Of a DNA stretch of 64,000 nucleotides, positions 25,764 through 43,129 are shown in pieces. Under the pieces are notes generated by a model. That model had not been told where the DNA came from and did no database searches. It saw nothing but the letters and a program-made list of their open reading frames with translations. Within the stretch, counting starts at the first letter, position 1; each line of letters opens with the position of its first letter. The translations under genes were made by a program, and so were the position numbers. This DNA is from Candidatus Aenigmatarchaeota archaeon (GTDB lineage Archaea > Aenigmatarchaeota > Aenigmatarchaeia > Aenigmatarchaeales > Aenigmatarchaeaceae), in contig JBDRJK010000011.1 of the NCBI GenBank assembly GCA_043814985.1, positions 10,710 through 74,709 of the forward strand, given 5' to 3'.

Positions 25764-26999
25764 ATGGATAATGGAATAGTTGATTTCTGGTCTTTACCCC
25801 ATGACAAAATTTATTTAAATTTAGAAAATGAATTAAAGGAAAAAATTTTCAATTCTTCAAAAGAATATGCTGGGAGCTGGAGCAAATTAGGAAAATGTCT
25901 TGGCCTTTCCCTAAACAAATATGGAAGCTGTAAAATTATAGAAAGTGCTAGATGTAAAAAATTTAGTTTATTTTTACTTGATAAAATTATAGATTATTTG
26001 AATTCTAATGGCGAGAAAATAGATAAGAAGAATATAGAAAAGAAAATAACAGTACTTTCCTCTAAAAGAGGAGGTTCAAACAAGTTAGCCAACAGTATTT
26101 TCAATCCAAAGATACCCTTTAATTTTAATACTGTTGACGGTGCTACTGTCCTTTCTTCCATTTTTTATGATGGTGGAATTAACAGCAACCTATTGCCTCA
26201 TTATAGTAATCCAGACAATGTAGAACTGAGGAAAAGTGTGTTCGATTCTTTCACAAATGTTTTTGGCACATTCAAATCTAAAAAAAGCAACCCCTTAGAA
26301 AATCCTCAGCTATACTTCCCAAAAATAGTCGGAGTAATTCTTGTTTATGGTTTAGGATTATCTTATGGAAGAAAAGTTGTAAATAATCCATCCATACCAG
26401 AATTCTTATTTGAATCCTCTGAAGAAATAAAATCATCATTTCTTCGACAAGCCTTTGATGATGAAGGCTCTGTCCACAAGACTAAAAGAAATATAAGTTT
26501 CAAATTGGCCTCTTCTTCTGAAAGACCTGCTAAACTTCTTACCGGTGTAAAATGTCTGTTAGAGAGTCTAAACATAGAGAGCAATGGTCCTCATTATGTT
26601 GATACATACAATACTAAGAACGGCATTACAGCTTCCAGATGGAGAATATCTGTAACACATCAAGATAATTTAAAAAAGTTTTATGAAAAAATTGGTTTTC
26701 ATTCATCCTATAAGAAAAATAGACTTAAGAATATTATTCATACATTAAAATACCCTCATTATTCTGTTAAAAATAGAAACAAAATTATTATAAAATCTTG
26801 CAGTGAACTTCAAAAAAGATACGGTTTTATAACTAGCAGAGAACTTGCAATACAAATCGACAGAAGTCGGGTCTTAGCTAAAAAGGTTATTCGAAAATTA
26901 GTAGATAGGAAAGTTCTCTTAGTTAAAGAATGCCGCCATGGAAATATGGGAGCTAAATATGTTTTAAGTGATAATTATGAATCTTTGTGTAAGATGTAA
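25764..26999 (+). CDS. LAGLIDADG-like double-motif endonuclease-like protein with C-terminal wHTH
   Basis: Motifs 'LSSIFYDGGIN' and 'SFLRQAFDDEGSV' (LAGLIDADG-like); C-terminal 'ITSRELAIQIDRSRVLAKKVIRKLVDRKVL'. Confidence 0.5.
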   Translation: MDNGIVDFWSLPHDKIYLNLENELKEKIFNSSKEYAGSWSKLGKCLGLSLNKYGSCKIIESARCKKFSLFLLDKIIDYLNSNGEKIDKKNIEKKITVLSSKRGGSNKLANSIFNPKIPFNFNTVDGATVLSSIFYDGGINSNLLPHYSNPDNVELRKSVFDSFTNVFGTFKSKKSNPLENPQLYFPKIVGVILVYGLGLSYGRKVVNNPSIPEFLFESSEEIKSSFLRQAFDDEGSVHKTKRNISFKLASSSERPAKLLTGVKCLLESLNIESNGPHYVDTYNTKNGITASRWRISVTHQDNLKKFYEKIGFHSSYKKNRLKNIIHTLKYPHYSVKNRNKIIIKSCSELQKRYGFITSRELAIQIDRSRVLAKKVIRKLVDRKVLLVKECRHGNMGAKYVLSDNYESLCKM

Positions 27000-28191
27000 A
27001 GGTACTAGGATTTTATGTGGAAAAAGTAGTTGTCCATTGTTGATAAAGTTCTATAGTTATATGAGAACTAAACCACTTATTGATTCGACTACTCTCAATG
27101 GTTCATCGCCACCAGCTTGCTTTGTAGGTTCTTATGGATATCCCAAGGTTTTCGTGGGGCCCTTGGTGCCGCCGAAACACGGTGACACCAGCTTCATGGA
27201 CACGCCTGAGATGTGGAGGGGCAAGACAATGTGGGACATAGTCGACTTCAGGTTCCAGCTGGTGAGGGGCAAGTTCGTGACTGATGTCAAGAACTTTGAG
27301 GGAAAGATAATCGAGCGGACTAGGGAGATTGCCCTGGCTCAGGAGTCTCCCAGTGCTGAGGTTGAGTTCAAGAACAAACCAAGAGGATTATCCTTTAACA
27401 GTGAGACACAGCCCTTTGGTCCGTCGGCAAATGTCATTGGCCTTAATATTGAAAACAAGGGCTACAACAAGAAAATAGAAAAAGCGTTCTACGACACTGA
27501 CCTGAAGGCTGTGCCTGCTGTTGTTGATCTTTACAAGAACGGCGTGCTGATTTCAAAAATACAGAAGGCTTTTTCTGTGGGTGCGTTTGGAATCGGAAAG
27601 AGCAGGAGATTCGTTCCAACGCGCTGGAGCATAACAGCTGTTGATGACATGATTTCAAAACATCTCATAGAGCAGGTAAAAACATTCCCGCTGATAAACG
27701 AGTATCTGGTTTACGAGCACGCTGCTTTGGACAACCGCTGGTTTGTTTTAATGATACCACACGAATGGAGTTACGAGCAGATGGAAGCGTGGTATCCCAA
27801 GACATTGTGGAACCCGTCTGATGCAATTGACATATCAACAGCATGGGAAGGTTTCAACGGACTAAAGGGCTATCCGGATACAGCTGGCTGCTACTTTTCC
27901 ACGAGGCTGGCTGCCACCGAGTACCTTGCCAATGAAAGGAGGCAGGCTGCTGTAATAGTATTCAGGGAAATCCATCCAGGTTACACTGTTCCTGTGGGTG
28001 TCTGGCACACCCGAGAGAGCATAAGGGATGCTGTCAAGAAAACTCCTGTTAGATTCAGCTCAATGAGTGGCGCCTTGGACTATCTGTCAAAGAAGATGAC
28101 CATACCTGTTAAGAGGTGGGTTGAAAAATCCAGTCTTCTTAGGAACCTGATGCGACAGAGAAAGCTGTCAGACTTCATCAAGCCTTTCTAA
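26968..28191 (+). CDS. NreA-like DNA repair protein (DUF650/DUF651)
   Basis: N-terminal 'CVRCKGTRILCGKSSCP' and 'PPACFVGSYGYP'; ~400 aa. Confidence 0.5.
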   Translation: MIIMNLCVRCKGTRILCGKSSCPLLIKFYSYMRTKPLIDSTTLNGSSPPACFVGSYGYPKVFVGPLVPPKHGDTSFMDTPEMWRGKTMWDIVDFRFQLVRGKFVTDVKNFEGKIIERTREIALAQESPSAEVEFKNKPRGLSFNSETQPFGPSANVIGLNIENKGYNKKIEKAFYDTDLKAVPAVVDLYKNGVLISKIQKAFSVGAFGIGKSRRFVPTRWSITAVDDMISKHLIEQVKTFPLINEYLVYEHAALDNRWFVLMIPHEWSYEQMEAWYPKTLWNPSDAIDISTAWEGFNGLKGYPDTAGCYFSTRLAATEYLANERRQAAVIVFREIHPGYTVPVGVWHTRESIRDAVKKTPVRFSSMSGALDYLSKKMTIPVKRWVEKSSLLRNLMRQRKLSDFIKPF

Positions 28192-29947: not shown

Positions 29948-29984
29948 TTTTCTTTTTCTTTTGTTTTAATTTATTTAGAATTAG

Positions 29985-30119
29985 TTATTGACTGAACAGT
30001 CCGAGTCTTCTTACTGCATCTCTGACAGCCTCGGACCTGTTAGGGTAAATGCCCTGTTCAATTAATTGATCAATCTTCTCTATCAATTCTCTTGTCAGCC
30101 TGATTTGTATTGGGTGCAT
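29985..30119 (-). CDS. ribbon-helix-helix (CopG-like) protein, 44 aa
   Basis: Not in ORF track; MHPIQIRLTRELIEKIDQLIEQGIYPNRSEAVRDAVRRLGLFSQ; RHH beta-strand + 'NRSEAVRDAVR' helix. Confidence 0.55.
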   Translation of the reverse strand: MHPIQIRLTRELIEKIDQLIEQGIYPNRSEAVRDAVRRLGLFSQ

Positions 30120-30329
30120 TTAATCACTTTAGAAAACTTGGACAGAAAAGGATTTAAGCTTGAATTTTTTTTGTGCTTCTATAAGTTTTCTTATAAAAGT
30201 GCGTAATTTGTAGGACAAGTGTTAGACAAACGTAGTTGATGCGTAATGCTGGAAAAGCAATAAATAGTTTCAGTTACCATTAATCTTTGTGTGTTTTACA
30301 CAAAAAAATATTCTATGTGAGGTGAGTAA

Positions 30330-31406
30330 ATGAGTTTAGTTAGTAAAAGATTGAAAGGTAGTTCCGGCGCTGTCAAGGGCGCAATTGTTCTACTCACACT
30401 CGCGTTCATAGTTGCTAGCGTGAGCTATGTAATACCTGCTTTGGCTGTTCATAGTTCATCTGCTGTAATCAGTCCAGAATGGGTTATACCAAGTTCTGAA
30501 TACACATTCACCATAAATGTAACACATACTTATGTTGGCGGTGACGCCATAAGGGAAGTTAGAATATACAATAATACGCCAGGACATGAGGGTTTTGTTT
30601 GCGGTGTTGCTCCTTCTGGATGGTGGCTTATTGACCAAACAGGAACTTCTAATTACTGCCAATACCAAACAAACACCAATTGGCTTTATTATGATGATTT
30701 TGAAGACTTTACTTTCAAGGCAACAATGATTCAGGCCGAATGTACTTTGGTCACATGTTCTCATCTTTTTAGAACATCAACAATAGATATCAAGGAACCA
30801 CAAGGAGAGTTGTTCTATAATCTACCTGAAGTAAAGGTTGATTGTTTTGATCCTATAACAACAAAAACATATGGGGATCCTAAAAAACTTTTAGATGAAC
30901 ATTGGATTAATTCTTCAACGCCAATAACACTCACAGCAACAGATAATAAGGACTGTGATTCTGGTGTTGATTACATAAAGTATAGGTACTGTCTTGATTC
31001 CGGCTGTTATGAAGGCGAACCATGTGACTGTAGGGATGATCCTTGGACTACAGTAGATGACTATACAGATACATTCACAATTCCAGAAGATTCTGAACAC
31101 TGTATAGAATTTTATGCTGTAGACAATGTAGGTAATGATGAAAAGATAAAATCGCAGTGTGTTTTTGTTGACAATCAACCGCCTTATTCTGTTAAGGAAG
31201 TTGGTGATCCAAAGCTCCCACAGGATATAGAGGAAGAAGGTAGCGGAGATGCAGGATGGTCGACAGAAGGAGAATATAATTCACCGACCCATTCAGCAAA
31301 GCTTTATGTTGCAAACGGAGGAAATGACTGGGCTGGAGTTGATATAGAAGTTGATAAAGCTTTAAAAGATATTACTGAATTATCATTTTGGGAGAAAGTA
31401 GCATGA
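30330..31406 (+). CDS. N-terminal segment (signal peptide + first Ig-like Cys-rich repeat) of giant surface protein; interrupted
   Basis: Signal peptide 'AIVLLTLAFIVASVSYVIPALA'; repeat 'ITLTATDNKDCDSGVDYIKYRY...CIEFYAVDNVGNDE...QCVFVDNQPP'; ends at TGA 31404-31406 with downstream ORF open in +1 frame. Confidence 0.6.
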   Translation: MSLVSKRLKGSSGAVKGAIVLLTLAFIVASVSYVIPALAVHSSSAVISPEWVIPSSEYTFTINVTHTYVGGDAIREVRIYNNTPGHEGFVCGVAPSGWWLIDQTGTSNYCQYQTNTNWLYYDDFEDFTFKATMIQAECTLVTCSHLFRTSTIDIKEPQGELFYNLPEVKVDCFDPITTKTYGDPKKLLDEHWINSSTPITLTATDNKDCDSGVDYIKYRYCLDSGCYEGEPCDCRDDPWTTVDDYTDTFTIPEDSEHCIEFYAVDNVGNDEKIKSQCVFVDNQPPYSVKEVGDPKLPQDIEEEGSGDAGWSTEGEYNSPTHSAKLYVANGGNDWAGVDIEVDKALKDITELSFWEKVA

Positions 31407-31422
31407 TGACACATTCGTAGAA

Positions 31423-34400
31423 ATGGATGGGGCATTGGGACCGCTAGGCAGTACATTTGACTGGACAAAGATAGATGCTCTTGCTACACCAAGATGGTGG
31501 ACACCTAATGCTGGTGGAGATGGTTTATCTGGAGCTGGATATGGTTATACTGTACCACCTGCTCTCTATGATACATTCACCAATCTTTTGACTAAAATTG
31601 ATGACGGAACTTGGGATACGAATATTCCTGACACCAATGTGAAAGTAAAACTAATAAAACTAGTTATAGGTGGCTCAGGAAGTTGGATGAATGAAACAGC
31701 ATTTGTAGATGATTTAAGTTTGAATAATGTCATCATAATGTCTGAACCACCAGAATATTGGGTAACTCAAAATACATCAATAACATTGGATTGTGTAGAT
31801 CCAGAGCCTCATCCAGTTGATCAAGAAACTTTGTGCTATAGAGTATCTTTACACGATGATGGATTGGAGTATATAACAAACAATCCAGGTAAATATTGTG
31901 ACACCTTCGGAGGAACAAAAGACGAAGATTGGTGTTGTGTAAATGTTGGTGTCAACCCACTACCAATTCATTTCTTAGAAGATTCACACCATAACCTGGA
32001 ATACTTCTGTGAAGACTATCTTGGCAATACAGAAAGTCCATTTAATATACAGTGGTATTATGTTGATACTGTACCGCCAGCAACGACCAAAACATATGAG
32101 CCTGGTGTGTATGTAGACGGAAATACAGAGTATGCAGACACTGTTCATAGAGTAATATTGGAATCAGATGACGTAGGCGATATTTGTGTAATTGGTTTGG
32201 ATGAAATATATTATAGGGTCAGAGTTTTGAAGAACCCGAACAACTGGCATTACTGTTATGACGGTTGTGACGGATGGAACGGAATACCAGACCATTTGGA
32301 AGCTTTCCAAGCAACCCCATGGTTAACCTATGATGTGCCATTCGGTTTGCCAGAGGAATCTTGTAACGTTATTGAATATTATGCTGTAGACAGTTTAGGA
32401 AACGAAGAAACAGTTAAAAGACAGTGTGTATTCTATGATGCAACAGACCCAGTGACTGAAAAGAGTTATGGAGAGCCATTCTTCAGTCCTGATGGAAATG
32501 TTACAAAGTGGATAAACACAAGTACTGAAATAACCCTTGCTGCAACAGACCCCGAACCACATCCTTCTGGTGTTAAGGAAACAAATTATAGAGTAACATT
32601 ACTAGGAAGCAATGAGGCATGTGAAAGTAATAGTAGATGCCAAGAAATAAAAATAGATGGGGGTGGTTGGACACCATATACGGTCCCATTTACAATTGGA
32701 GAAGAATCATGCCATTTGATTGAATATTATAGCGTTGATAATGTCGATAAAGATGAGGACATAAATAGGCAGTGTGTATTTGTTGAAGACACAGCACCAA
32801 CTATTTTGGAAAAGACAGTCGGTCAGCCAAGTTTTGAGAGAGAAGGAAAGACTTACATATCAGGCCAGAGTCCAATAACCATGAGATGTGAGGATCGGGG
32901 AGACCACCCAGTAGATTATGTCTCAATGTGGTACAGATACAGGGTGAGTGATGACTGTGCAACGTGGGGACCTTGGATTACAGACGGTTGCCAGGATCAA
33001 GTTGTGAACGGATGGTGTGATCCAACAGGACAAGGTGTAGTTGAAAAGACAATATACTTCCCACAAGACTCCTGCCATGAATTAGAATACTATTGTGTGG
33101 ACGCACTAGGCAACGAGGCACAGCATGAATTCGAGATTGATGTTGTTGACAATCAGGCACCTGAAATAGAAAAAATAATAGTCGGTCCGCAATGGGGAGA
33201 CTGTCCACCTGGAGAAGGTGATACATGCTTTGTTGACAGTGCAACCGAGATAATTGTTAATGCAAGCGATCCAGAGCCACATCCAGCAGGTGAAGTGCTT
33301 TGTGATTGGAATGTTGTTGTAAAGAATGTTGCAGGAGCAGAGATTGACAGTTATGGAGATAGTGGAATTACTCCACCATTCCCAATAACCTTCCCAGAAG
33401 AATCGTTCCACGAATTAACAATAGATTGTTATGATAGACTTGGAAATAATGCATACGATTTTGAAGTTTTCGAAGCTGATCATACATCACCTTTAATTTT
33501 GAAGAGTTACAATCCAGAAGAAATATATCGCGAAGGCAATGGATGGTGGGCAGAGTGGATAGACTCAGATACAGAAATAAACATTGAAGTAACTGACGAT
33601 GGAGATCATAAATCAGGAATTAAAGAAGTCAAGTATCGTTATACAAGACAAGACAATGATGAATATTGTAACTACACTGTTGAAGACCAATATGAGTGTG
33701 AAGATGCAGTCGGAACTGGTGTTTGGACATATGTTGACCCAGCAGATTTTGATGACTTTACTTTCCAAATACCACAAGACTCATGTCACTTAATTGAAAT
33801 AGTAGCAACAGACAATGTAGATAAAGAAAATTATCATAAACAGTGTGTATACGTTGACAATCAAGGACCAGACCCATTGAAAGAAGTATATGATCCAAAA
33901 GCAATGTGGACTCCAGGTATAGACGGAGATCAACCAAGTTACTTCTATCCTGAAGAAACTGCACATTGTTGGGATGGAACAGAGTTTTCAATAGACTGCT
34001 GGAAAGTTACAATGATGACAAGAATATCTCTTGACTGCGAAGACAAGCAGCCACACCCAGTTGATCATGAAGGCGTTTGCTTCAAAGTTGGTTTGGATGG
34101 AGAAGACGCAACTGAAGAATACTGTAACAGCAATGAAGAAGTATCCTGTGTCTTAGATTGCACTGATAACGAAAATGACATCAAGGGAGAAATGATTGAT
34201 GGTTGGTGTTGTGTCGATGGTACAATAGAAAACTTTTATTTCCAAGAAGAAACAGAGCACAACCTAAAGTATTATTGTACTGATGCTTTAGGAAATGTAG
34301 GACCAGAAGACGAAGAGAAGTTCAAGGTTGAAGGAACAACATTTGAAATACCATTGTACAAGAAGTGGAACTTGATATCAGTGCCATTTGTATTATTGGA

Positions 34401-35055
34401 CGACGACCCAGAAGTGGTATTCAATAATGTAAAAGAAAACATAATATCAGTCTGGGCATATGACGGAGACAAGGTATTATGTGGTCAAGAGTGGTGCGTA
34501 TGGACACCAGGAGATGGTCCAGATAATCTAAGAATAATACCAGGTTGGGGTTATTGGGTATTGACAAACCTGACAGAAGAACCAGTAGAGGTATTGATTG
34601 GAGGAAGCTTGTTCAGTCCAAGAACAACGCCACCAAGCAGGGATTTGGTTTCAGGATGGAACCTGATTGGTTACTATGGAACAAGTTGGGAACTGTATGA
34701 ATGTGGAGACTTTGAGCCAACATGCAGACCAGGAATCAATTGGTTCCCAGGCAAGTACATATACGGAGACCAAGTATACTGCGCCTTGAACTCGCTGGTA
34801 GACACACAAGAAGGATATCCAAGATGGAGTTCATTGTGGAGTTACATAAGCTGTGGAAGTCACACTGCATATTGGTTAGGATTGAACACATGTGCAGACC
34901 CAGATAGTCCACTACAATCAAACCTTGACAGAATGTATGCAGGTCGTGGATACTGGTTAGAGTTGGATGTAGCAGACATGTATGCACCAGCAACAACTTG
35001 TCTATGGAACAGTGACTATGAATGCAGATGGTCAGGCGGCGGAATAATACCTTAG
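31423..35055 (+). CDS. giant Cys-rich surface protein, >=7 Ig-like repeat modules plus Trp-rich C-terminal domain (continuation of 30330 ORF)
   Basis: 1210 aa; modules 'TLDCVDPEPHP...YRV...EESCHxIEYYxVDxxGNxE...QCVFVD'; no own signal peptide. Confidence 0.7.
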   Translation: MDGALGPLGSTFDWTKIDALATPRWWTPNAGGDGLSGAGYGYTVPPALYDTFTNLLTKIDDGTWDTNIPDTNVKVKLIKLVIGGSGSWMNETAFVDDLSLNNVIIMSEPPEYWVTQNTSITLDCVDPEPHPVDQETLCYRVSLHDDGLEYITNNPGKYCDTFGGTKDEDWCCVNVGVNPLPIHFLEDSHHNLEYFCEDYLGNTESPFNIQWYYVDTVPPATTKTYEPGVYVDGNTEYADTVHRVILESDDVGDICVIGLDEIYYRVRVLKNPNNWHYCYDGCDGWNGIPDHLEAFQATPWLTYDVPFGLPEESCNVIEYYAVDSLGNEETVKRQCVFYDATDPVTEKSYGEPFFSPDGNVTKWINTSTEITLAATDPEPHPSGVKETNYRVTLLGSNEACESNSRCQEIKIDGGGWTPYTVPFTIGEESCHLIEYYSVDNVDKDEDINRQCVFVEDTAPTILEKTVGQPSFEREGKTYISGQSPITMRCEDRGDHPVDYVSMWYRYRVSDDCATWGPWITDGCQDQVVNGWCDPTGQGVVEKTIYFPQDSCHELEYYCVDALGNEAQHEFEIDVVDNQAPEIEKIIVGPQWGDCPPGEGDTCFVDSATEIIVNASDPEPHPAGEVLCDWNVVVKNVAGAEIDSYGDSGITPPFPITFPEESFHELTIDCYDRLGNNAYDFEVFEADHTSPLILKSYNPEEIYREGNGWWAEWIDSDTEINIEVTDDGDHKSGIKEVKYRYTRQDNDEYCNYTVEDQYECEDAVGTGVWTYVDPADFDDFTFQIPQDSCHLIEIVATDNVDKENYHKQCVYVDNQGPDPLKEVYDPKAMWTPGIDGDQPSYFYPEETAHCWDGTEFSIDCWKVTMMTRISLDCEDKQPHPVDHEGVCFKVGLDGEDATEEYCNSNEEVSCVLDCTDNENDIKGEMIDGWCCVDGTIENFYFQEETEHNLKYYCTDALGNVGPEDEEKFKVEGTTFEIPLYKKWNLISVPFVLLDDDPEVVFNNVKENIISVWAYDGDKVLCGQEWCVWTPGDGPDNLRIIPGWGYWVLTNLTEEPVEVLIGGSLFSPRTTPPSRDLVSGWNLIGYYGTSWELYECGDFEPTCRPGINWFPGKYIYGDQVYCALNSLVDTQEGYPRWSSLWSYISCGSHTAYWLGLNTCADPDSPLQSNLDRMYAGRGYWLELDVADMYAPATTCLWNSDYECRWSGGGIIP

Positions 35056-35226: not shown

Positions 35227-35982
35227 ATGAACCAAAAATTGATGTTGACTACATTTGTTGGTATTATGTTACTTTCTAATTTAGTTTTGGCAGTGCCAAT
35301 CGCCCATCAATTTTATGGCAATGTCAGTATTAACGGAAGTCCAGCTCCGGATGGAACAACTGTTGTTGCTAAAATAGACGGAACAGAGGTTGGAAGCACA
35401 ACAACTAAAGGTGGAAAGTATGGTTATGACCCAGTATTCATAATATCACTTTCTTCTATACAATCTGGAAGAACAATTAATTTTTTTGTTAATGGAAATC
35501 AAGCAAATGAAAACTTTCAATCTTGTTATGATTTTGCTTGTAGCACAGAATTAGATTTAACAGCTACAGGTGAAACAACTTCTGGCACTACAACAACTAC
35601 TACAGGCGGCGGAGCTCCTAGCGGTGGCGGTTCCACACCATCAACAGAAACCACAACTGAAACAACCGAAACTACAGAAGAGGGTTGCCAGGAGAGATGG
35701 ACTTGTTCAGACTGGGGAGCATGTGAGAACGGCATCCAGACAAGAGTTTGTGAAGACATAAACAACTGCGGAACAAACAGTGGAGAACCGTTCTCATCTC
35801 AGCCATGTGCAACTGTTGGAGAGGAAGCAGAAGCATCAGTTGGACCATCAGGATTCTTCCTACTAACGCCGACCAACCTGTTGATAGGGTCAGTTGTTTT
35901 AATAATAGTCGCGGCAATCACAATCTTTCTATTAAGAAGAAAATCCGAAAACATCGTACTGCCGCCCAAAGCGCTTCTTTAA
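35227..35982 (+). CDS. secreted Thr-rich protein with TSP1-like Cys motif and C-terminal TM anchor
   Basis: Signal peptide; 'TTTTTTGGG...TETTETTE' linker; 'CQERWTCSDWGACENGIQTRVCEDINNCG'; C-terminal TM + 'RRK'. Confidence 0.55.
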   Translation: MNQKLMLTTFVGIMLLSNLVLAVPIAHQFYGNVSINGSPAPDGTTVVAKIDGTEVGSTTTKGGKYGYDPVFIISLSSIQSGRTINFFVNGNQANENFQSCYDFACSTELDLTATGETTSGTTTTTTGGGAPSGGGSTPSTETTTETTETTEEGCQERWTCSDWGACENGIQTRVCEDINNCGTNSGEPFSSQPCATVGEEAEASVGPSGFFLLTPTNLLIGSVVLIIVAAITIFLLRRKSENIVLPPKALL

Positions 35983-36049: not shown

Positions 36050-36802
36050 ATGTCCAAGAAAAATAAGTTTCTCTTTATAATAGTATTGTCGATAGTTTTG
36101 TCGTCTTCGTTAGCCTATGCTATGATAAATTTCCCAGACTTCAAGATCTTCCCGACAATATACGATGAGATAATGCCGAATGAATTGCTTGAGGAGCTGA
36201 AGATTATTGACAGGCTGTCTTTCGTCAAGCTGGCCCAGCACGGCTACAGCCACGGCACAAATGAAAGCCGCCTTGATGTTTTGAAAGGCTACAAGATTCT
36301 GGAATACGATTACGGCTTGGACATAGAATACTATATCCCGCCTTATGATATTCCCCATGCATTCCCCGTGCCCGAAAAAATTTTCTACATACCGGAAAAG
36401 GCCGAGGGCATATACTATGAAAAGGAGAAGATGGACTACGGCCAGTCTTCAGTTGATGATAAATGGACAATGGCCATCCATATTCAGAACGAGATAAACA
36501 CTACTTGGCTGGACGAGATATCAGAGGGAAAGGAGATTGATTACTTCCGTATTGATGACATCAACACGGACATAGTTGATGTAGATACCCAAAAAAACAG
36601 GATATACACCATGATCAACTTCTGCGGCTATAAGAACTGCACCCTTGTTCTGGGTATCATTCCTGTTGTTCCTAGGATGCAGGAGTCGGACAAAAGCTAC
36701 CTTTTCTTCAACAAGGCAATGATAGCCTTGGGCATAATGATGATACTCCCCATATACCTTTTCTACTTTTTGAGTTACCAGTTCCATTGGTGGTTAAAAT
36801 GA
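36050..36802 (+). CDS. membrane-anchored extracytoplasmic protein, weak polysaccharide-deacetylase-like (DUF2334-like 'HGYSH')
   Basis: N-terminal signal/TM, C-terminal TM; 16-nt overlap with GT2 gene. Confidence 0.3.
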   Translation: MSKKNKFLFIIVLSIVLSSSLAYAMINFPDFKIFPTIYDEIMPNELLEELKIIDRLSFVKLAQHGYSHGTNESRLDVLKGYKILEYDYGLDIEYYIPPYDIPHAFPVPEKIFYIPEKAEGIYYEKEKMDYGQSSVDDKWTMAIHIQNEINTTWLDEISEGKEIDYFRIDDINTDIVDVDTQKNRIYTMINFCGYKNCTLVLGIIPVVPRMQESDKSYLFFNKAMIALGIMMILPIYLFYFLSYQFHWWLK

Positions 36803-37845
36803 ATAATGTATCAAGCATCATAATACCGGTCTATAATGAAGAGAAGATTATCATGAATATGCTCAAAAAGAATGTCAAGGTTTTTGAAAACAGCAATATG
36901 GACATCAAGGAGATAATCGTGGTTGATGACGGTTCCATTGACAACTCAAAGAAGGAGATTAAGAGATTCATAAGGGATTACAAAGGCAATATTGACATCA
37001 GGCTGATTCCCCACACAACAAACATGGGAAAGGCCCAGGCTCTTAACACGGGGATAAGGCACGCCAATGGGGAATACGTTCTCTTGTCTGATTCGGACTC
37101 TTTCATGGATGTTGAGGCGCCTGAAAAGATTATTCTGAAGATGAGAGAGACAGGGGCTTCATGTATTGTAGGACATGTTGTGCCTGCTCAGAACACCCTT
37201 CTGACGCGCCTGCAGAGGATGGAGTATGACTTTGACCAAAAGGTAATAAGAAGGGTGCAGTCCCTGTACACCAACGTGATATCAATTCCAGGACCGCTGT
37301 ATTTCACCAAAAAGAGCATTGTTGAAAAGATAAAATTCGACAAGTACAGCATTGTCGAGGATTTCAAGATCGGGATTGAGATGAACAAGAAGAGGCAAAG
37401 GATAGTCCCGACTGATGCCGTGGTATACTCTTATGCCCCTACCAACTTTTCGCAGCTCAGGAAGCAGAGGCTCAGATGGTTCGGGGGAGTATTGAAGGAG
37501 ACCCTGAGAAACAAGGATGTCTGGAAGACCAACCCGTTCTATTTTTCCAACGTGCTGATGTGCTTCACGTCGTTCTTCTTCACCATATCAACCGTAACTT
37601 TGTTTGGCCTGATGCTTTACTTCGCTACAAACCTGCCCAACCTGCTGGTAAACTTCGTGCTGTTCTTCCTTTTCTTCTGCTTTACAATTTCAGCTGTTTA
37701 TGCCCTGTCTATAAGAAGGTTCGAGTTGGACACTTTCCTGGCATTCCCGCTCTATCTGACCTTCTTGTTCATAGTCAGGACAGAGGTTGTCATAAAAGTT
37801 GTTTTGAACAGGAAGTTCGTTTGGGGGACAAGGGAATACCGTTAA
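36787..37845 (+). CDS. family-2 glycosyltransferase, processive synthase type (QxxRW)
   Basis: 'VVDDGSID', 'LLSDSDSF' DxD, 'QRLRWFGG'; 4 C-terminal TM helices. Confidence 0.8.
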   Translation: MVVKMNNVSSIIIPVYNEEKIIMNMLKKNVKVFENSNMDIKEIIVVDDGSIDNSKKEIKRFIRDYKGNIDIRLIPHTTNMGKAQALNTGIRHANGEYVLLSDSDSFMDVEAPEKIILKMRETGASCIVGHVVPAQNTLLTRLQRMEYDFDQKVIRRVQSLYTNVISIPGPLYFTKKSIVEKIKFDKYSIVEDFKIGIEMNKKRQRIVPTDAVVYSYAPTNFSQLRKQRLRWFGGVLKETLRNKDVWKTNPFYFSNVLMCFTSFFFTISTVTLFGLMLYFATNLPNLLVNFVLFFLFFCFTISAVYALSIRRFELDTFLAFPLYLTFLFIVRTEVVIKVVLNRKFVWGTREYR

Positions 37846-39772: not shown

Positions 39773-40804
39773 ATGAAGAAAACATTAACAGGATTCGTGA
39801 TTTTATCAATTCTATTAGTATTATCAGTAAACATCGCTATTGCTGAAGAAGAGAGCGTATCATTCGATGTAACTGAGAATGAGACAAACAGCAGCTATAC
39901 TGTAAACATAGACATACAAATCTCAGGAAACGATACTCATGTAAGAGATGACCTATACGGAACAGCAACTGGTTCAGGACCAAGGGATGTGATTTTGGGA
40001 GGTGCTGAATTTGATCATAATAGCGAAGTTAGAGAGATTTGCTATCAGCCAAGCTTACAAGCATATTTTAACCAAATAGGAGACATACCACCATCAGGTT
40101 TTGCAGCATATCTAAAATCTTTGGGATATGATGATGAATCTCATATAAGTTTTATATGGAGTTTGTGCCAGCAAGAGTACATCAACCAACAGCAAGACGC
40201 ATGGTCAACAGACTCTGGCGTACAACCAACTGATATGGTCCGTTACATTACAGGTTCCATAGACTGGTTGTTGGGAAGAGAAGCAAATCCTTTAGACGGA
40301 TACAAAAAGATAGGAGTTGCCTTGGACAGTTACTTTGCTTCTGATAGGGATGTTTGGCTTCTGGTAAACAGAATAAACATTCTGGAGGTAAGAATAGAAG
40401 CATTGGAAAAGACAATAGAAAGAATCGCTTCTGAGGAATACTGTGAAATGAAGGTTGAAGCTCTAATGAAATATAATTTGAGCTATGTCAAGTGCGGAGA
40501 GAACTCGACCATCTATGCAAGAGTCGATCCAAACGAATTTGGTTTCAACATAATCGGTTACACTAACGAGGATCAATGCGCTGTAGAATGGGGATGTACA
40601 GATTGGAGTGAATGCGAGAACGGAATCCAGACTAGAAGATGTTCTGATGCAAACATGTGCGGAAGATATGAAAATAAACCAGAAGAAACACAGGTATGTG
40701 CAGTGGTTCAAGAAGATATAGAAGAGCCAGATTTAACTTATGTTTCAGTCAAGGAAGTCCTTCCAACAATACAGAGCTTGCTTCTGCCTTTGTTCGTGGT
40801 CTGA
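39773..40804 (+). CDS. secreted protein with TSP1-like Cys motif
   Basis: Signal peptide; 'EWGCTDWSECENGIQTRRCSDANMCG' paralogous to motif in 35227 gene. Confidence 0.5.
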   Translation: MKKTLTGFVILSILLVLSVNIAIAEEESVSFDVTENETNSSYTVNIDIQISGNDTHVRDDLYGTATGSGPRDVILGGAEFDHNSEVREICYQPSLQAYFNQIGDIPPSGFAAYLKSLGYDDESHISFIWSLCQQEYINQQQDAWSTDSGVQPTDMVRYITGSIDWLLGREANPLDGYKKIGVALDSYFASDRDVWLLVNRINILEVRIEALEKTIERIASEEYCEMKVEALMKYNLSYVKCGENSTIYARVDPNEFGFNIIGYTNEDQCAVEWGCTDWSECENGIQTRRCSDANMCGRYENKPEETQVCAVVQEDIEEPDLTYVSVKEVLPTIQSLLLPLFVV

Positions 40805-41011: not shown

Positions 41012-43129
41012 ATGAAGAAAGTTATTTTATTTTCTATAATAGCAATAGTCTTGCTGAGCTCAATAACATTGGCAATGACAGACGTGAGAGCGTCAAATAT
41101 TAAATCTAATAGAGTTATAGCGCGCACAAATTCTCTAGCAGACAGGATGCTATTCAGAATGCAGGGGTGCAAAATAATTCACGAGCTGGAAGATGCGACT
41201 GCAATGAATTGCCCAGAGGCAATTGCTTCGAGATTCGAGCAAGATGAAGTTCTTTATATAATGGATTTACAAGCAGACCAACAGATAGGGGCGGACAAGG
41301 TTTGGGCTTTGGGTTATGACGGTTCTGGGGTAACAGTCGCGGTTTTGGATACAGGAGTTGATTATGACCATCAGGAGCTGTCAGACAGCATAGTTGGAGG
41401 TATAAGCTTTGTCTCATACACATCTAGCTATTCTGATGACCATGGACATGGAACACATGTCTCAGGAATAATAACTGCCAATGGTGTTGTAGCCTCTGCA
41501 GAAGGCGTTGCGCCAGGAGCAAAGGTATGGATGGCAAAAGTTTGCGATTCTGGTGGTTCTTGCTATACGAGCGATATAGCAGCTGCGATTGATTATGTTG
41601 TTGATGGGCCTGATGGTGCACCAAATACAGGAGACGAACCAGCAAAGATAATGAGCATAAGCTTGGGCGGCGGAGGAACTTCTAGGTCAAATTGTGATAA
41701 TGATTACTTGGCTTCAAAAGTTAACTGGGCAGTAAGCAAGGGTGTGACTGTTGTAGCAGCAGCAGGCAATACCGGAAGAGTAGTTAGCAGCCCTGGTTGT
41801 GCAAGCGGGGCAATAGCAGTTGGGGCAGTTGACAAAGGCGATGTAAGACCATCTTGGTCTGGCTCAGGCAGTGCGTTAGATATAGTTGCACCAGGGGTAA
41901 GCATTTATTCTAGTTTGCCGGGCGGCGCTTATGCGTCTTGGAGCGGTACTTCAATGGCAACACCGCATGTTTCAGCAACAGTGGCTTTGATGAGGCAGGT
42001 GAACCCGAGCTTAACAGACAGTCAAATCAAAAGCATACTTTATTCAACAGCCAAAGATTTAGGAAGTGCAGGATGGGATAGATATTATGGCTGGGGAAGA
42101 GTCGACGCCTACAATGCATACTTGGCTGTTAAACCAATAGAACCTGAATGCACAATTGATTCAGAATGTGATGACGGATTATACTGTAATGGAGCTGAGA
42201 CATGTATTTCAGGAGTTTGCCAATCAGGAGCATCTGTTGGCTGTTCCTATTTAGATAATCAATGCAATGTTGGAATTTGTGATGAAGCTTCAGATAGTTG
42301 TGTGGCACAACCAAGACCCGACGGAACTTCTTGTAATGACGGTTTGTTCTGTAATGTAGGAGAAACCTGTCAGGCTGGAGCATGCGGCGGAGGAGAGGCT
42401 TACACCTGTGGTGTTAATGACACTTGTACTATTGCTTCTTGTGATGAATCATCAGATAGCTGTTCAAGTTCACCAGTAGCAGACGGAACAACATGTGACG
42501 ATAATTTGTTTTGCACAGTGTATGACGCTTGTACAAGCGGTATTTGCGGTGGAGAACAAATAAACTGTAATGACGGTGTAGGATGCACTGTTGATTCTTG
42601 CAACGAGGGAACAGGCTCTTGCGATAACACGCCGGATAATTCAATATGTGATGATGAAATATATTGTAATGGTGTGGAAACATGCCATGCAACATCAGAT
42701 TGCCAGGCGGGAATCCCAGTAAATTGTAATGATAATAATTTTTGTACAGCAGATAGTTGCGTTGAAGGTTTAAAAACATGTGAAAACGTCTGGGAGGCAT
42801 GTGGTTCGACGGATGGATGCTGCGGACCCGATTGCAATAGTATAAATGATCCAGACTGTGCAACAGCTGTTAAATGCTGGAGCGGAGATTACCAATATCT
42901 CTACAGGAATTCGAATCAGATGAAAAAATTCTGCAAGTGTGCAATGGGTATTTATGGATACAATAGTTACAGTTATAGTTGGGGAAGGGAAACAGTTTAT
43001 TATTATTTAGACTCGGGAAACAATGAAGAGTGGGATACAAATTCAAGGTCATCATATCTTCCAGTAAACAAAGTAGTTTGTGCAGACGGTGAACCATACT
43101 CGACTGGCGAAGATTACTACTACGGTTAA
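41012..43129 (+). CDS. secreted subtilisin-like serine protease (S8) with C-terminal Cys-rich repeats
   Basis: Signal peptide; Asp 'VAVLDTGVD', His 'HGHGTHVSG', Ser 'GTSMATPHVS'; >=6 repeats 'CxDGLYCNGAETC'. Confidence 0.85.
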   Translation: MKKVILFSIIAIVLLSSITLAMTDVRASNIKSNRVIARTNSLADRMLFRMQGCKIIHELEDATAMNCPEAIASRFEQDEVLYIMDLQADQQIGADKVWALGYDGSGVTVAVLDTGVDYDHQELSDSIVGGISFVSYTSSYSDDHGHGTHVSGIITANGVVASAEGVAPGAKVWMAKVCDSGGSCYTSDIAAAIDYVVDGPDGAPNTGDEPAKIMSISLGGGGTSRSNCDNDYLASKVNWAVSKGVTVVAAAGNTGRVVSSPGCASGAIAVGAVDKGDVRPSWSGSGSALDIVAPGVSIYSSLPGGAYASWSGTSMATPHVSATVALMRQVNPSLTDSQIKSILYSTAKDLGSAGWDRYYGWGRVDAYNAYLAVKPIEPECTIDSECDDGLYCNGAETCISGVCQSGASVGCSYLDNQCNVGICDEASDSCVAQPRPDGTSCNDGLFCNVGETCQAGACGGGEAYTCGVNDTCTIASCDESSDSCSSSPVADGTTCDDNLFCTVYDACTSGICGGEQINCNDGVGCTVDSCNEGTGSCDNTPDNSICDDEIYCNGVETCHATSDCQAGIPVNCNDNNFCTADSCVEGLKTCENVWEACGSTDGCCGPDCNSINDPDCATAVKCWSGDYQYLYRNSNQMKKFCKCAMGIYGYNSYSYSWGRETVYYYLDSGNNEEWDTNSRSSYLPVNKVVCADGEPYSTGEDYYYG

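Follow-up and report, generated by a model that had tools for sequence, protein, structure and literature searches.

Large cysteine-rich surface proteins of DPANN archaea, for example those of Ca. Huberarchaeum crystalense, have been proposed to serve host contact, which is a proposal and not a demonstrated role (Probst et al. 2018, PMC6792436). Our literature search on the protein family considered here, or on the metagenome-assembled genome (MAG) carrying it, returned nothing beyond a general remark about such large Cys-rich proteins at the DPANN cell surface. Among curated models, OmpL47-type proteins are covered by the OmpL47-type beta-barrel domain (NF047446, curated cutoff 40 bits) and by the Leptospira OmpL47 equivalog (NF047441, curated cutoff 250 bits). 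A classic way to stimulate a +1 shift is to have the A site occupied by a stop codon, as in prfB, the gene of release factor 2. It is also known that TGA is reassigned in some uncultivated lineages.

The locus described here belongs to Candidatus Aenigmatarchaeota archaeon (assembly GCA_043814985.1) and lies in a stretch of 64,000 nt of contig JBDRJK010000011.1, the whole of which is referred to below as the window. An earlier reading of these letters (the sequence-only reading) had described a giant Cys-rich surface protein gene split over two ORFs, with one +1 frame change as the link between them, and had offered three options: a sequencing indel, a fresh pseudogenisation, or a programmed +1 frameshift or stop-codon-associated recoding. 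As the homologues are contiguous and residues are missing at the junction, we favour the second of these options over the other two. With a probability of approximately 85%, a single giant surface-protein gene was disrupted by a recent internal out-of-frame deletion.

Two ORFs of one ancestral gene

The features of the locus are as follows.

30319..30325, + strand: Shine-Dalgarno-like GAGGTGA 5' of the ORF1 ATG start (direct reading)
30330..31406, + strand: ORF1, 358 aa, 5' part of the disrupted gene for the giant surface protein (direct reading)
30330..30449, + strand: N-terminal charged, then hydrophobic segment, MSLVSKRLKGSSGAVKG-AIVLLTLAFIVASVSYVIPALA (read by eye, no predictor run)
31053..31157, + strand: match to the OmpL47-type beta-barrel domain in ORF1 (NF047446; signature EHCIEFYAVDNVGN at 31095)
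31194..31403, + strand: junction domain, N-terminal 70 residues, ending ...ITELSFWEKVA (phmmer and alignment)
31399..31409, + strand: junction TAG-CA-TGA-TGA (direct reading; flank homology by alignment)
31405..31749, + strand: junction domain, C-terminal ~115 residues, DDTFVEMDGALGPLG ... KLVIGGSGSWMNETAFVDDLSLNN (phmmer and alignment)
31423..35055, + strand: ORF2, which makes up the 3' part; 1210 aa when counted from its first ATG (direct reading)
33961..35052, + strand: conserved C-terminal region (…FKVEGTTFEIPLYKKWNLISVPF…PGWGYWV…GWNLIGYYG…), common to more than 100 DPANN giant homologues

The ORF boundaries, the stop of ORF1 and the frame opening at 31402 given in the sequence-only reading were all confirmed by direct reading. 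ORF1 is 100% identical to the NCBI MAG protein ABIE55_01560 of Candidatus Aenigmatarchaeota archaeon (listed as P0001), and ORF2 is identical to ABIE55_01565 (listed as P0011). The ORF2 frame is open from 31402 (CAT GAT GAC ACA TTC ...) to TAG at 35053-35055, its first ATG being at 31423. There is no Shine-Dalgarno motif at this ATG, and the same is true of many genes in the window.

The charged and hydrophobic N-terminal segment of ORF1, a putative signal peptide or N-terminal anchor, is also kept in the contiguous homologues P0013, P0040 and P0099. No hydrophobic signal or anchor segment is seen in the directly read sequence of ORF2. Both ORFs match NF047446 (ORF1 with a borderline 40.1 bits, ORF2 with 99.6 bits), and the signature C/E-H-x-[ILV]-E-[YF]-x-x-x-D-x-x-G-N has one copy in ORF1 and seven in ORF2. 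Thus, the earlier statements that ORF2 has no signal peptide of its own and shares the repeat family of ORF1 hold. The fused product contains 60 Cys in 1574 aa (3.8%).

Residues 6-1573 of the fused product align with residues 8-1564 of the contiguous homologue P0013 (1,565 aa) in one HSP with 44.7% identity. Protein searches yielded over 100 homologues in DPANN MAGs that are contiguous and 1,300-2,600 aa long, assigned to Aenigmatarchaeota, Woesearchaeota, Pacearchaeota, Micrarchaeota, Diapherotrites, Iainarchaeota and Altiarchaeota. Since the alignment with contiguous homologues spans the whole fused product, ORF1 and ORF2 are halves of one ancestral gene, encoding a predicted secreted, Cys-rich, multi-domain surface protein of ~1,600 aa, which bears out the giant split gene of the sequence-only reading. 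The order of the parts is the signal or anchor segment, an N-terminal domain, an OmpL47-type repeat, a CBM-like beta-sandwich, seven OmpL47-type repeats and the conserved C-terminal domain.

The window's own two ORFs aside, protein searches of indexed assemblies (including Logan) gave no close relative above ~50% identity, and among the GTDB representatives ORF1 had neither a close relative nor an undeleted allele. The exact 26-mer upstream of the junction had 0 matches in JGI metagenomes.

The junction and the missing residues

ORF1 ends as ...FWEKVA followed by TGA (31404-31406) and TGA (31407-31409), which shut its frame, and the ORF2 frame is shut on the 5' side by TAG (31399-31401). The open frames overlap by 2 nt, the CA at 31402-31403, which can be assigned to either flank, as part of GCA in ...KVA or of CAT in HDDTF. 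Only three joins are possible: KVA/DD, KV/HDD (+1) and KVA/HDD (-2). At the junction the fused product would read ...SFWEKVA-DDTFVEMDGALG..., or, as a peptide, SFWEK/VADDTFVEMDGALGPLGSTFDWTK. An overlap of 2 nt, where ORF1 stops right at the junction, is the geometry expected for a stop-codon-stimulated +1 site, and this counts against a deletion. Off-frame stops at the locus are on average 10.5 and 13.7 codons apart, and we estimate that a random out-of-frame junction would be bracketed by stops so tightly ~1-3% of the time, which is uncommon, not extraordinary.

With the intact domain of P0013 as a phmmer query, positions 4-76 match fused residues 289-360 and positions 114-211 match residues 359-473, leaving 37 positions of the domain unmatched at the junction. 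In the blastx search with the window DNA, a jump from P0013 residue 373 to ~408 coincides with the frame change. In the alignment of 23 sequences, 21/21 intact copies have the domain in a single frame, with a stretch of 37-46 residues that separates FWEKV from (H)DDTF and of which the window is devoid. Among the intact copies the nearest is the second one of P0021, with 44 residues at the gap, KSFNKNGWDVNVILGIDLDGDGDFEANLPRWHGVGGAMHQAADL. The GTDB representative genomes provide 7 loci, and in all of them (7/7) the ORF that contains the domain is uninterrupted. Contiguity, proposed earlier as a check on orthologues, is seen both at these loci and in the more than 100 DPANN homologues.

Thus, the single +1 frame change of the sequence-only reading does not account for the locus, as the residues at the gap are absent relative to every intact homologue. 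Because these conserved codons are missing and the frame changes from 0 to +1 at the same point, the lesion is a deletion of 3n+2 length and not a skip of one nucleotide.

AlphaFold2 models the intact junction domain (pLDDT 87, pTM 0.87) as a beta-sandwich with a DxDGDG loop resembling a calcium site; the missing residues 77-120 cover this loop, the core strand E87-93 and a pair of helices. For the fused domain, the model has pLDDT 72 and pTM 0.71, and 15 residues past the junction fall below 50. A Foldseek search against the PDB gave as the top matches CBMs, lectins and phage tailspike or turret domains, with TM 0.3-0.45 and 9-14% identity. Neither a Pfam family nor a sequence relative in the PDB was found for the domain; that it binds sugar is only a guess. 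The domain also exists as stand-alone proteins of ~370 aa.

In our reading, an internal segment of ~110-140 nt, of 3n+2 length, was lost within the CBM-like beta-sandwich domain. The core beta-strand, the DxDGDG loop and two short helices went with it, and the 1,216 codons that follow were put in the +1 frame. This loss may have originated from illegitimate recombination or slippage at the 2-nt CA microhomology, which would yield the required 3n+2 length. Translation from the ORF1 start would be expected to stop at TGA 31404, producing a secreted fragment of 358 aa, and ORF2 would then be left with no route to the cell surface and would probably not be productively expressed.

Across 104 homologues, 74 C-terminal columns show a conservation of 90% or more; ORF2 keeps 74/74 of them, and no second interruption was found over its 1,210 codons. 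A second interruption had been named earlier as a sign of pseudogene decay; the scanned, intact ORF2 points instead to a recent event rather than long decay. As ORF2 shows no further decay, the deletion seems to be recent, or to be one allele of a mixed or polymorphic population. The intact ORF2 fits a very recent deletion, and it also fits continued selection on ORF2, implying some expression.

Alternative explanations

If the two frames were joined by a programmed +1 frameshift or recoding at GCA-TGA-T, the ribosome would pause at TGA and skip T31404, yielding a surface protein of 1,574 aa with a shortened beta-sandwich. The stop of ORF1 does sit exactly at the sole place where the frames can be joined, its 0-frame TGA (31404-31406) directly follows the last joinable codon GCA, and ORF2 is free of decay; GGGAG (31390-31394) lies 6 nt 5' of GCA, yet it encodes the conserved Trp-Glu of FWEK. 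The joined product, however, would miss the 37-46 conserved residues together with the core strand, and would be collinear with no homologue. The search for a conserved frameshift site, suggested in the sequence-only reading, found a frame change at this position in no homologue (21 aligned intact copies, 7 GTDB-representative loci), and the break in the same domain of a homologous gene in another metagenomic contig (L003) is ~15 codons further in, in unrelated sequence. By the decoding rules CAU cannot pair with tRNA-Ala, hence a P-site shift from GCA to CAU allows no +1 re-pairing and the site is not slippery; the downstream RNA fold is not significant (z = -1.14). No Rfam matches and no tRNAs were found in the window. 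The recoding option thus finds no support, the domain being kept in one frame in all intact copies and GTDB loci, and we consider it highly improbable. A functional gene fission, where ORF1 and ORF2 are translated separately and ORF2 is reinitiated at ATG 31423, appears improbable as well. This ATG is just 17 nt past the ORF1 stop, a Shine-Dalgarno motif is missing in many window genes, and ORF2 is perfectly preserved, but ORF2 has no signal peptide or anchor though made of Cys-rich extracellular-type repeats, the split runs through one beta-sandwich domain whose core strand is gone, and the two-gene organisation is present in no homologue. Reassignment of TGA, known in some uncultivated lineages, would let ORF1 continue in its own frame through TGA read as an amino acid; past 31404, however, frame 0 is broken by 116 stops over 1,217 codons, TAA and TAG among them, and shows no homology to anything; the homology of the gene carries on in the +1 frame. 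In the window, TGA is a normal stop, the long ORFs (n = 46) ending with TGA (14), TAA (21) or TAG (11). Such readthrough was rejected, and its probability is negligible.

An artefact of assembly or sequencing, with the real gene intact and ~110-140 nt lost in silico or in library preparation (e.g. through an amplification chimera), would be conceivable for a metagenome-assembled genome, as giant repeat-rich genes are difficult to assemble, and homologous giant genes are broken in two other metagenomic contigs (two deletions in L003, a 1-nt shift in L002). Against this, the Logan contig SRR27458548_40388 (1,750 nt) is identical to 29971..31720 of the window, junction included, and in de Bruijn assemblers each k-mer of a contig must be present in the reads. 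Up to the 2-nt CA, each flank matches a different part of the domain, and there is no repeat of k-mer length on the two sides of the junction. A repeat collapse by the assembler was rejected for the difference between the flanks, and it is unlikely because the independently built Logan contig carries the identical junction. The same base-for-base match, together with a loss of more than 100 nt, makes the sequencing indel of the sequence-only reading unlikely. The contig is not generally error-ridden, since housekeeping genes scanned across the window give full-length Pfam matches; the other scanned window genes are intact. Protein searches of indexed assemblies, including Logan, found no intact allele with near-100% flanks. 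An artefact is, in our view, unlikely, and we retain the deletion as the main reading: the locus is an ordinary disrupted gene, not a programmed ribosomal frameshift.

Recurrence and implications

In contig L003, the homologous giant gene has two similar out-of-frame deletions, one of them in the same beta-sandwich domain. The deletion in the window and both deletions in L003 each cause a net +1 shift, and no common sequence feature was seen at the three junctions. Two further scenarios may be imagined: either out-of-frame deletions of ~30-45 codons recur in DPANN giant surface genes as a population on/off switch or an escape (e.g. to evade viruses or to change hosts), or a non-canonical stop-stimulated +1 event keeps ORF2 in use here. 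We regard these scenarios as unlikely. If loss-of-function deletions do recur, this would, speculatively, bear on how episymbionts vary their host-contact surface.

For annotation, ABIE55_01560 and ABIE55_01565 should be treated as one disrupted gene instead of two hypothetical proteins. More generally, a deletion of more than 100 nt can hide behind what looks like a lone +1 junction and a frame overlap of 2 nt, and only an alignment to intact homologues reveals it. The analysis also outlines a widespread uncharacterised DPANN family of giant Cys-rich surface proteins (~1,400-2,600 aa) and defines a new CBM-like domain that has no Pfam family.

Comparison with known systems

The junction shares with prfB the 0-frame TGA at the point of +1 entry; a purine-rich GGGAG a few nucleotides upstream, within the conserved Trp-Glu codons, may be a second likeness. 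However, prfB has a slippery CUU-U in the P site, whereas here the P-site codon is GCA, the arrangement is not conserved in homologues, and the product is 37-46 residues short. The modelled beta-sandwich fold of the junction domain resembles CBM11, CBM16, CBM22, CBM4 and legume lectins, but these fold matches are weak (TM 0.3-0.45, 9-14% identity) and are accompanied by no Pfam or PDB sequence relative.

The likeness to OmpL47-type proteins (NF047446; Leptospira OmpL47, NF047441) consists in the domain match in both ORFs, the eight occurrences of the signature ...CH-x-IEYY-x-VD-x-x-GN, and the predicted secreted or surface location. The Leptospira equivalog NF047441 scores 34.4 bits with ORF1 and 62.4 bits with ORF2, not reaching its curated cutoff of 250 bits. 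Unlike Leptospira OmpL47, the present protein comes from an archaeon (DPANN) and is rich in Cys; it is four to five times the size and includes further domains (N-terminal, CBM-like and C-terminal) that are uncharacterised. With the proteins of Ca. Huberarchaeum crystalense it shares, as far as a likeness by description goes, the features of a giant extracellular Cys-rich protein of an ultra-small DPANN archaeon, differing from them in that the present gene is disrupted.

Structure of the split gene

The region holds a giant surface-protein gene of a DPANN archaeon that an internal, out-of-frame deletion has recently disrupted. The elements read directly around the break, and two genes downstream of it, are the following:

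30319-30325, +, GAGGTGA upstream of the ORF1 ATG
30330..31406, +, ORF1, with an ATG start and the C-terminus ...ITELSFWEKVA-TGA-TGA
31402 to 35055, +, open ORF2 frame (CAT GAT GAC ACA TTC GTA GAA ATG ...), first ATG at 31423
36787-37845, +, GT2 glycosyltransferase, adjoining several secreted proteins
41012-43129, +, 705-aa S8 subtilase, likewise

As direct reading shows, the ORF2 frame has a stop, TAG at 31399-31401, just before its opening, and the two open frames share no more than 2 nt, as the sequence-only reading had stated along with the ORF coordinates; hence, the only joins possible are KVA/DD or KV/HDD (+1) and KVA/HDD (-2). With off-frame stops as dense here as 1 per 10.5 and 1 per 13.7 codons, the chance of so tight a bracketing is estimated at ~1-3%, which is uncommon, not extraordinary.

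The same reading had described a Cys-rich product, a shared repeat family and an ORF2 devoid of a signal peptide, and all three hold: of the 1,574 residues in the fused product, 60 are Cys, both ORFs match the NF047446 model (OmpL47-type beta-barrel domain; ORF1, 40.1 bits; ORF2, 99.6 bits) with one copy of the repeat signature motif in ORF1 and seven in ORF2, and the charged, then hydrophobic N-terminal segment of ORF1 has nothing comparable in ORF2. The segment encoded by 30330-30449 (+) and the N-termini of the homologous proteins P0013, P0040 and P0099 share a conserved ...K(G/N)xSGAVKG/A and, after it, ~22 hydrophobic residues; this N-terminus could be a class III (prepilin-like, KG-cleaved) signal peptide instead of a Sec signal.

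With the fused sequence as query, 203 proteins reached E <= 1e-10. Among the top 120 listed, all but the window's ORF2 are 1,103-2,683 aa long, and those listed with source names come from DPANN lineages. For P0013 (1,565 aa), whose N-terminal segment is the same as that of ORF1, one HSP (44.7% identity) spans fused residues 6-1573. Thus, ORF1 and ORF2 are two pieces of one ancestral gene, as had been proposed. No relative with more than ~50% identity and no undeleted allele were found in protein searches, JGI metagenomes and GTDB representatives.

A missing segment at the junction

The break falls within a CBM-like beta-sandwich domain of ~215 residues, which also occurs alone in ~370-aa secreted proteins (P0002, P0003, P0006-P0010). 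All 21 intact copies aligned have 37-46 residues between ...ELSFWEK[VI] and ...[GD]D[ST]F[VI]EMDG (consensus xxxxNGWxVNVILGIDxDGDGVFEADxxxWHxGxxxHxPxxL), whereas the window has none, so that the single +1 frame change suggested earlier does not account for the junction. Phmmer aligns the P0013 domain to the fused protein in two stretches (4-76 and 114-211) abutting at the junction, and in blastx of the window DNA the match skips, where the frame changes, from P0013 residue 373 to about 408. The nearest intact copy, the second one in P0021, reads FWEKV-KSFNKNGWDVNVILGIDLDGDGDFEANLPRWHGVGGAMHQAADL-HGDTF; this suggests that CAT (His) at 31402 belonged to the original sequence downstream and GCA (Ala) to that upstream, 'CA' being common to both. 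A deletion resolved in this 2-nt microhomology would remove 3n+2 nt, exactly what a change from frame 0 to +1 needs.

Logan contig SRR27458548_40388 (1,750 nt) exactly equals window positions 29971..31720, with the junction well inside; in de Bruijn assemblers, each k-mer of such a contig necessarily occurs in the reads. Repeat collapse by the assembler is ruled out, as each flank is homologous to a separate part of the domain, as far as the 2-nt overlap, which leaves no repeat of k-mer length. The deletion could be fixed, or the population could be mixed with the deletion as its major allele.

In a confident AlphaFold2 model, the intact domain is a beta-sandwich (pLDDT 87.2, pTM 0.87), and residues 77-120, absent from the window, comprise the last part of strand 70-78, core strand 87-93, the DxDGDG loop and two short helices. 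The fused domain is modelled worse (pLDDT 72.0, pTM 0.71): only 19 residues attain pLDDT 90, vs 159 in the intact one, and just past the junction there are 15 below 50. No Pfam family covers the domain, and it lacks a sequence relative in the PDB; Foldseek with the intact model gave weak similarity only, to CBM11, CBM16, CBM22, lectins and phage tailspike/turret domains (TM 0.3-0.45). It is also found in ~300-370-codon ORFs of bacterial MAGs (Dehalococcoidia, Rokuibacteriota and Nocardioidaceae; loci L004, L009, L010), and hence is common to DPANN archaea and bacteria.

Origin of the break

We estimate at roughly 85% the probability that a recent deletion by illegitimate recombination or slippage truncated the gene. 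The alternative proposed earlier, programmed +1 frameshifting or other recoding, would fit the position of the ORF1 stop exactly at the join, the perfect preservation of ORF2 and a GGGAG stretch 6 nt upstream, although the latter encodes conserved Trp-Glu. However, the joined product would not be collinear with the homologues, none of which changes frame here, and the domain is uninterrupted at 7/7 GTDB-representative loci, among them DPANN ORFs ranging in length from 1,430 to >1,800 codons. Moreover, GCA-U offers no +1 re-pairing, and no significant RNA fold lies downstream (z = -1.14). We therefore consider recoding very improbable. As for the preservation of ORF2, 74/74 conserved C-terminal columns are kept (median of 104 homologues, 72.5), which we read as recency of the break.

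Breaks at other loci

In L003:1-3824 (JGI 3300033388, Ga0370355_1102808), two out-of-frame deletions, both with a net shift of +1, divide a homologous giant gene into three ORFs:

near L003:520-560, same beta-sandwich domain, ~28 residues absent (P0040 444-471)
near L003:1600-1650, OmpL47-type repeat, ~31 residues absent (P0040 807-837)

There are thus three out-of-frame deletions of 28-46 codons at two unrelated loci, and no motif shared by their junctions was found. They could reflect recurrent inactivation of genes of this kind, low-coverage assembly problems in these JGI contigs, or chance. In a Candidatus Iainarchaeum MAG (L002:1060-1160; JGI 3300033153 = GTDB record JAFCCW010000022.1), the junction domain of the homologous giant gene is intact; further along, the gene carries a simple -1 break, VDNEGP/YANKMVGDPSDK, with no residues absent.

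Genomic context and possible consequences

ORF1 and ORF2 are identical to ABIE55_01560 and ABIE55_01565, respectively (NCBI, Candidatus Aenigmatarchaeota MAG). The archaeal housekeeping genes of the window (aCPSF1/FttA, proteasome subunit, ProRS, Mre11/Rad50, MetRS, exosome RNase PH subunits, Nre, GatD/GatE, TBP, MCM) all have full-length Pfam matches, hence frameshifting is no general feature of the contig; as stop codons, TGA, TAA and TAG all occur. A 411-aa ORF with a LAGLIDADG_3 domain (25764-26999, +) shares 32 nt with the 5' end of the Nre gene (26968..28191). It is weakly similar to the intein regions found in several intein-containing proteins, and may represent a homing-endonuclease-like gene that stands alone.

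Downstream of the giant gene, small secreted/anchored Cys-containing proteins together with the glycosyltransferase and the subtilase suggest a cell-surface/cell-envelope gene neighbourhood. Two of the small proteins (35227-35982 and 39773-40804, +), with no Pfam family, have in common a Cys-rich module, W[TG]C[ST]DW[GS][AE]CENGIQTR.C.D.N.CG, presumably resembling the thrombospondin type-1 repeat.

Following the deletion, translation would end at 31404, yielding a 358-aa secreted fragment with the N-terminal domain, one OmpL47-type repeat and a third of the beta-sandwich, while ORF2, having neither an export signal nor an SD motif, would be silent or useless. The intact giant protein is presumably an adhesin-like surface protein, and may function in host contact, the role proposed for large Cys-rich surface proteins in DPANN archaea (PMC6792436).
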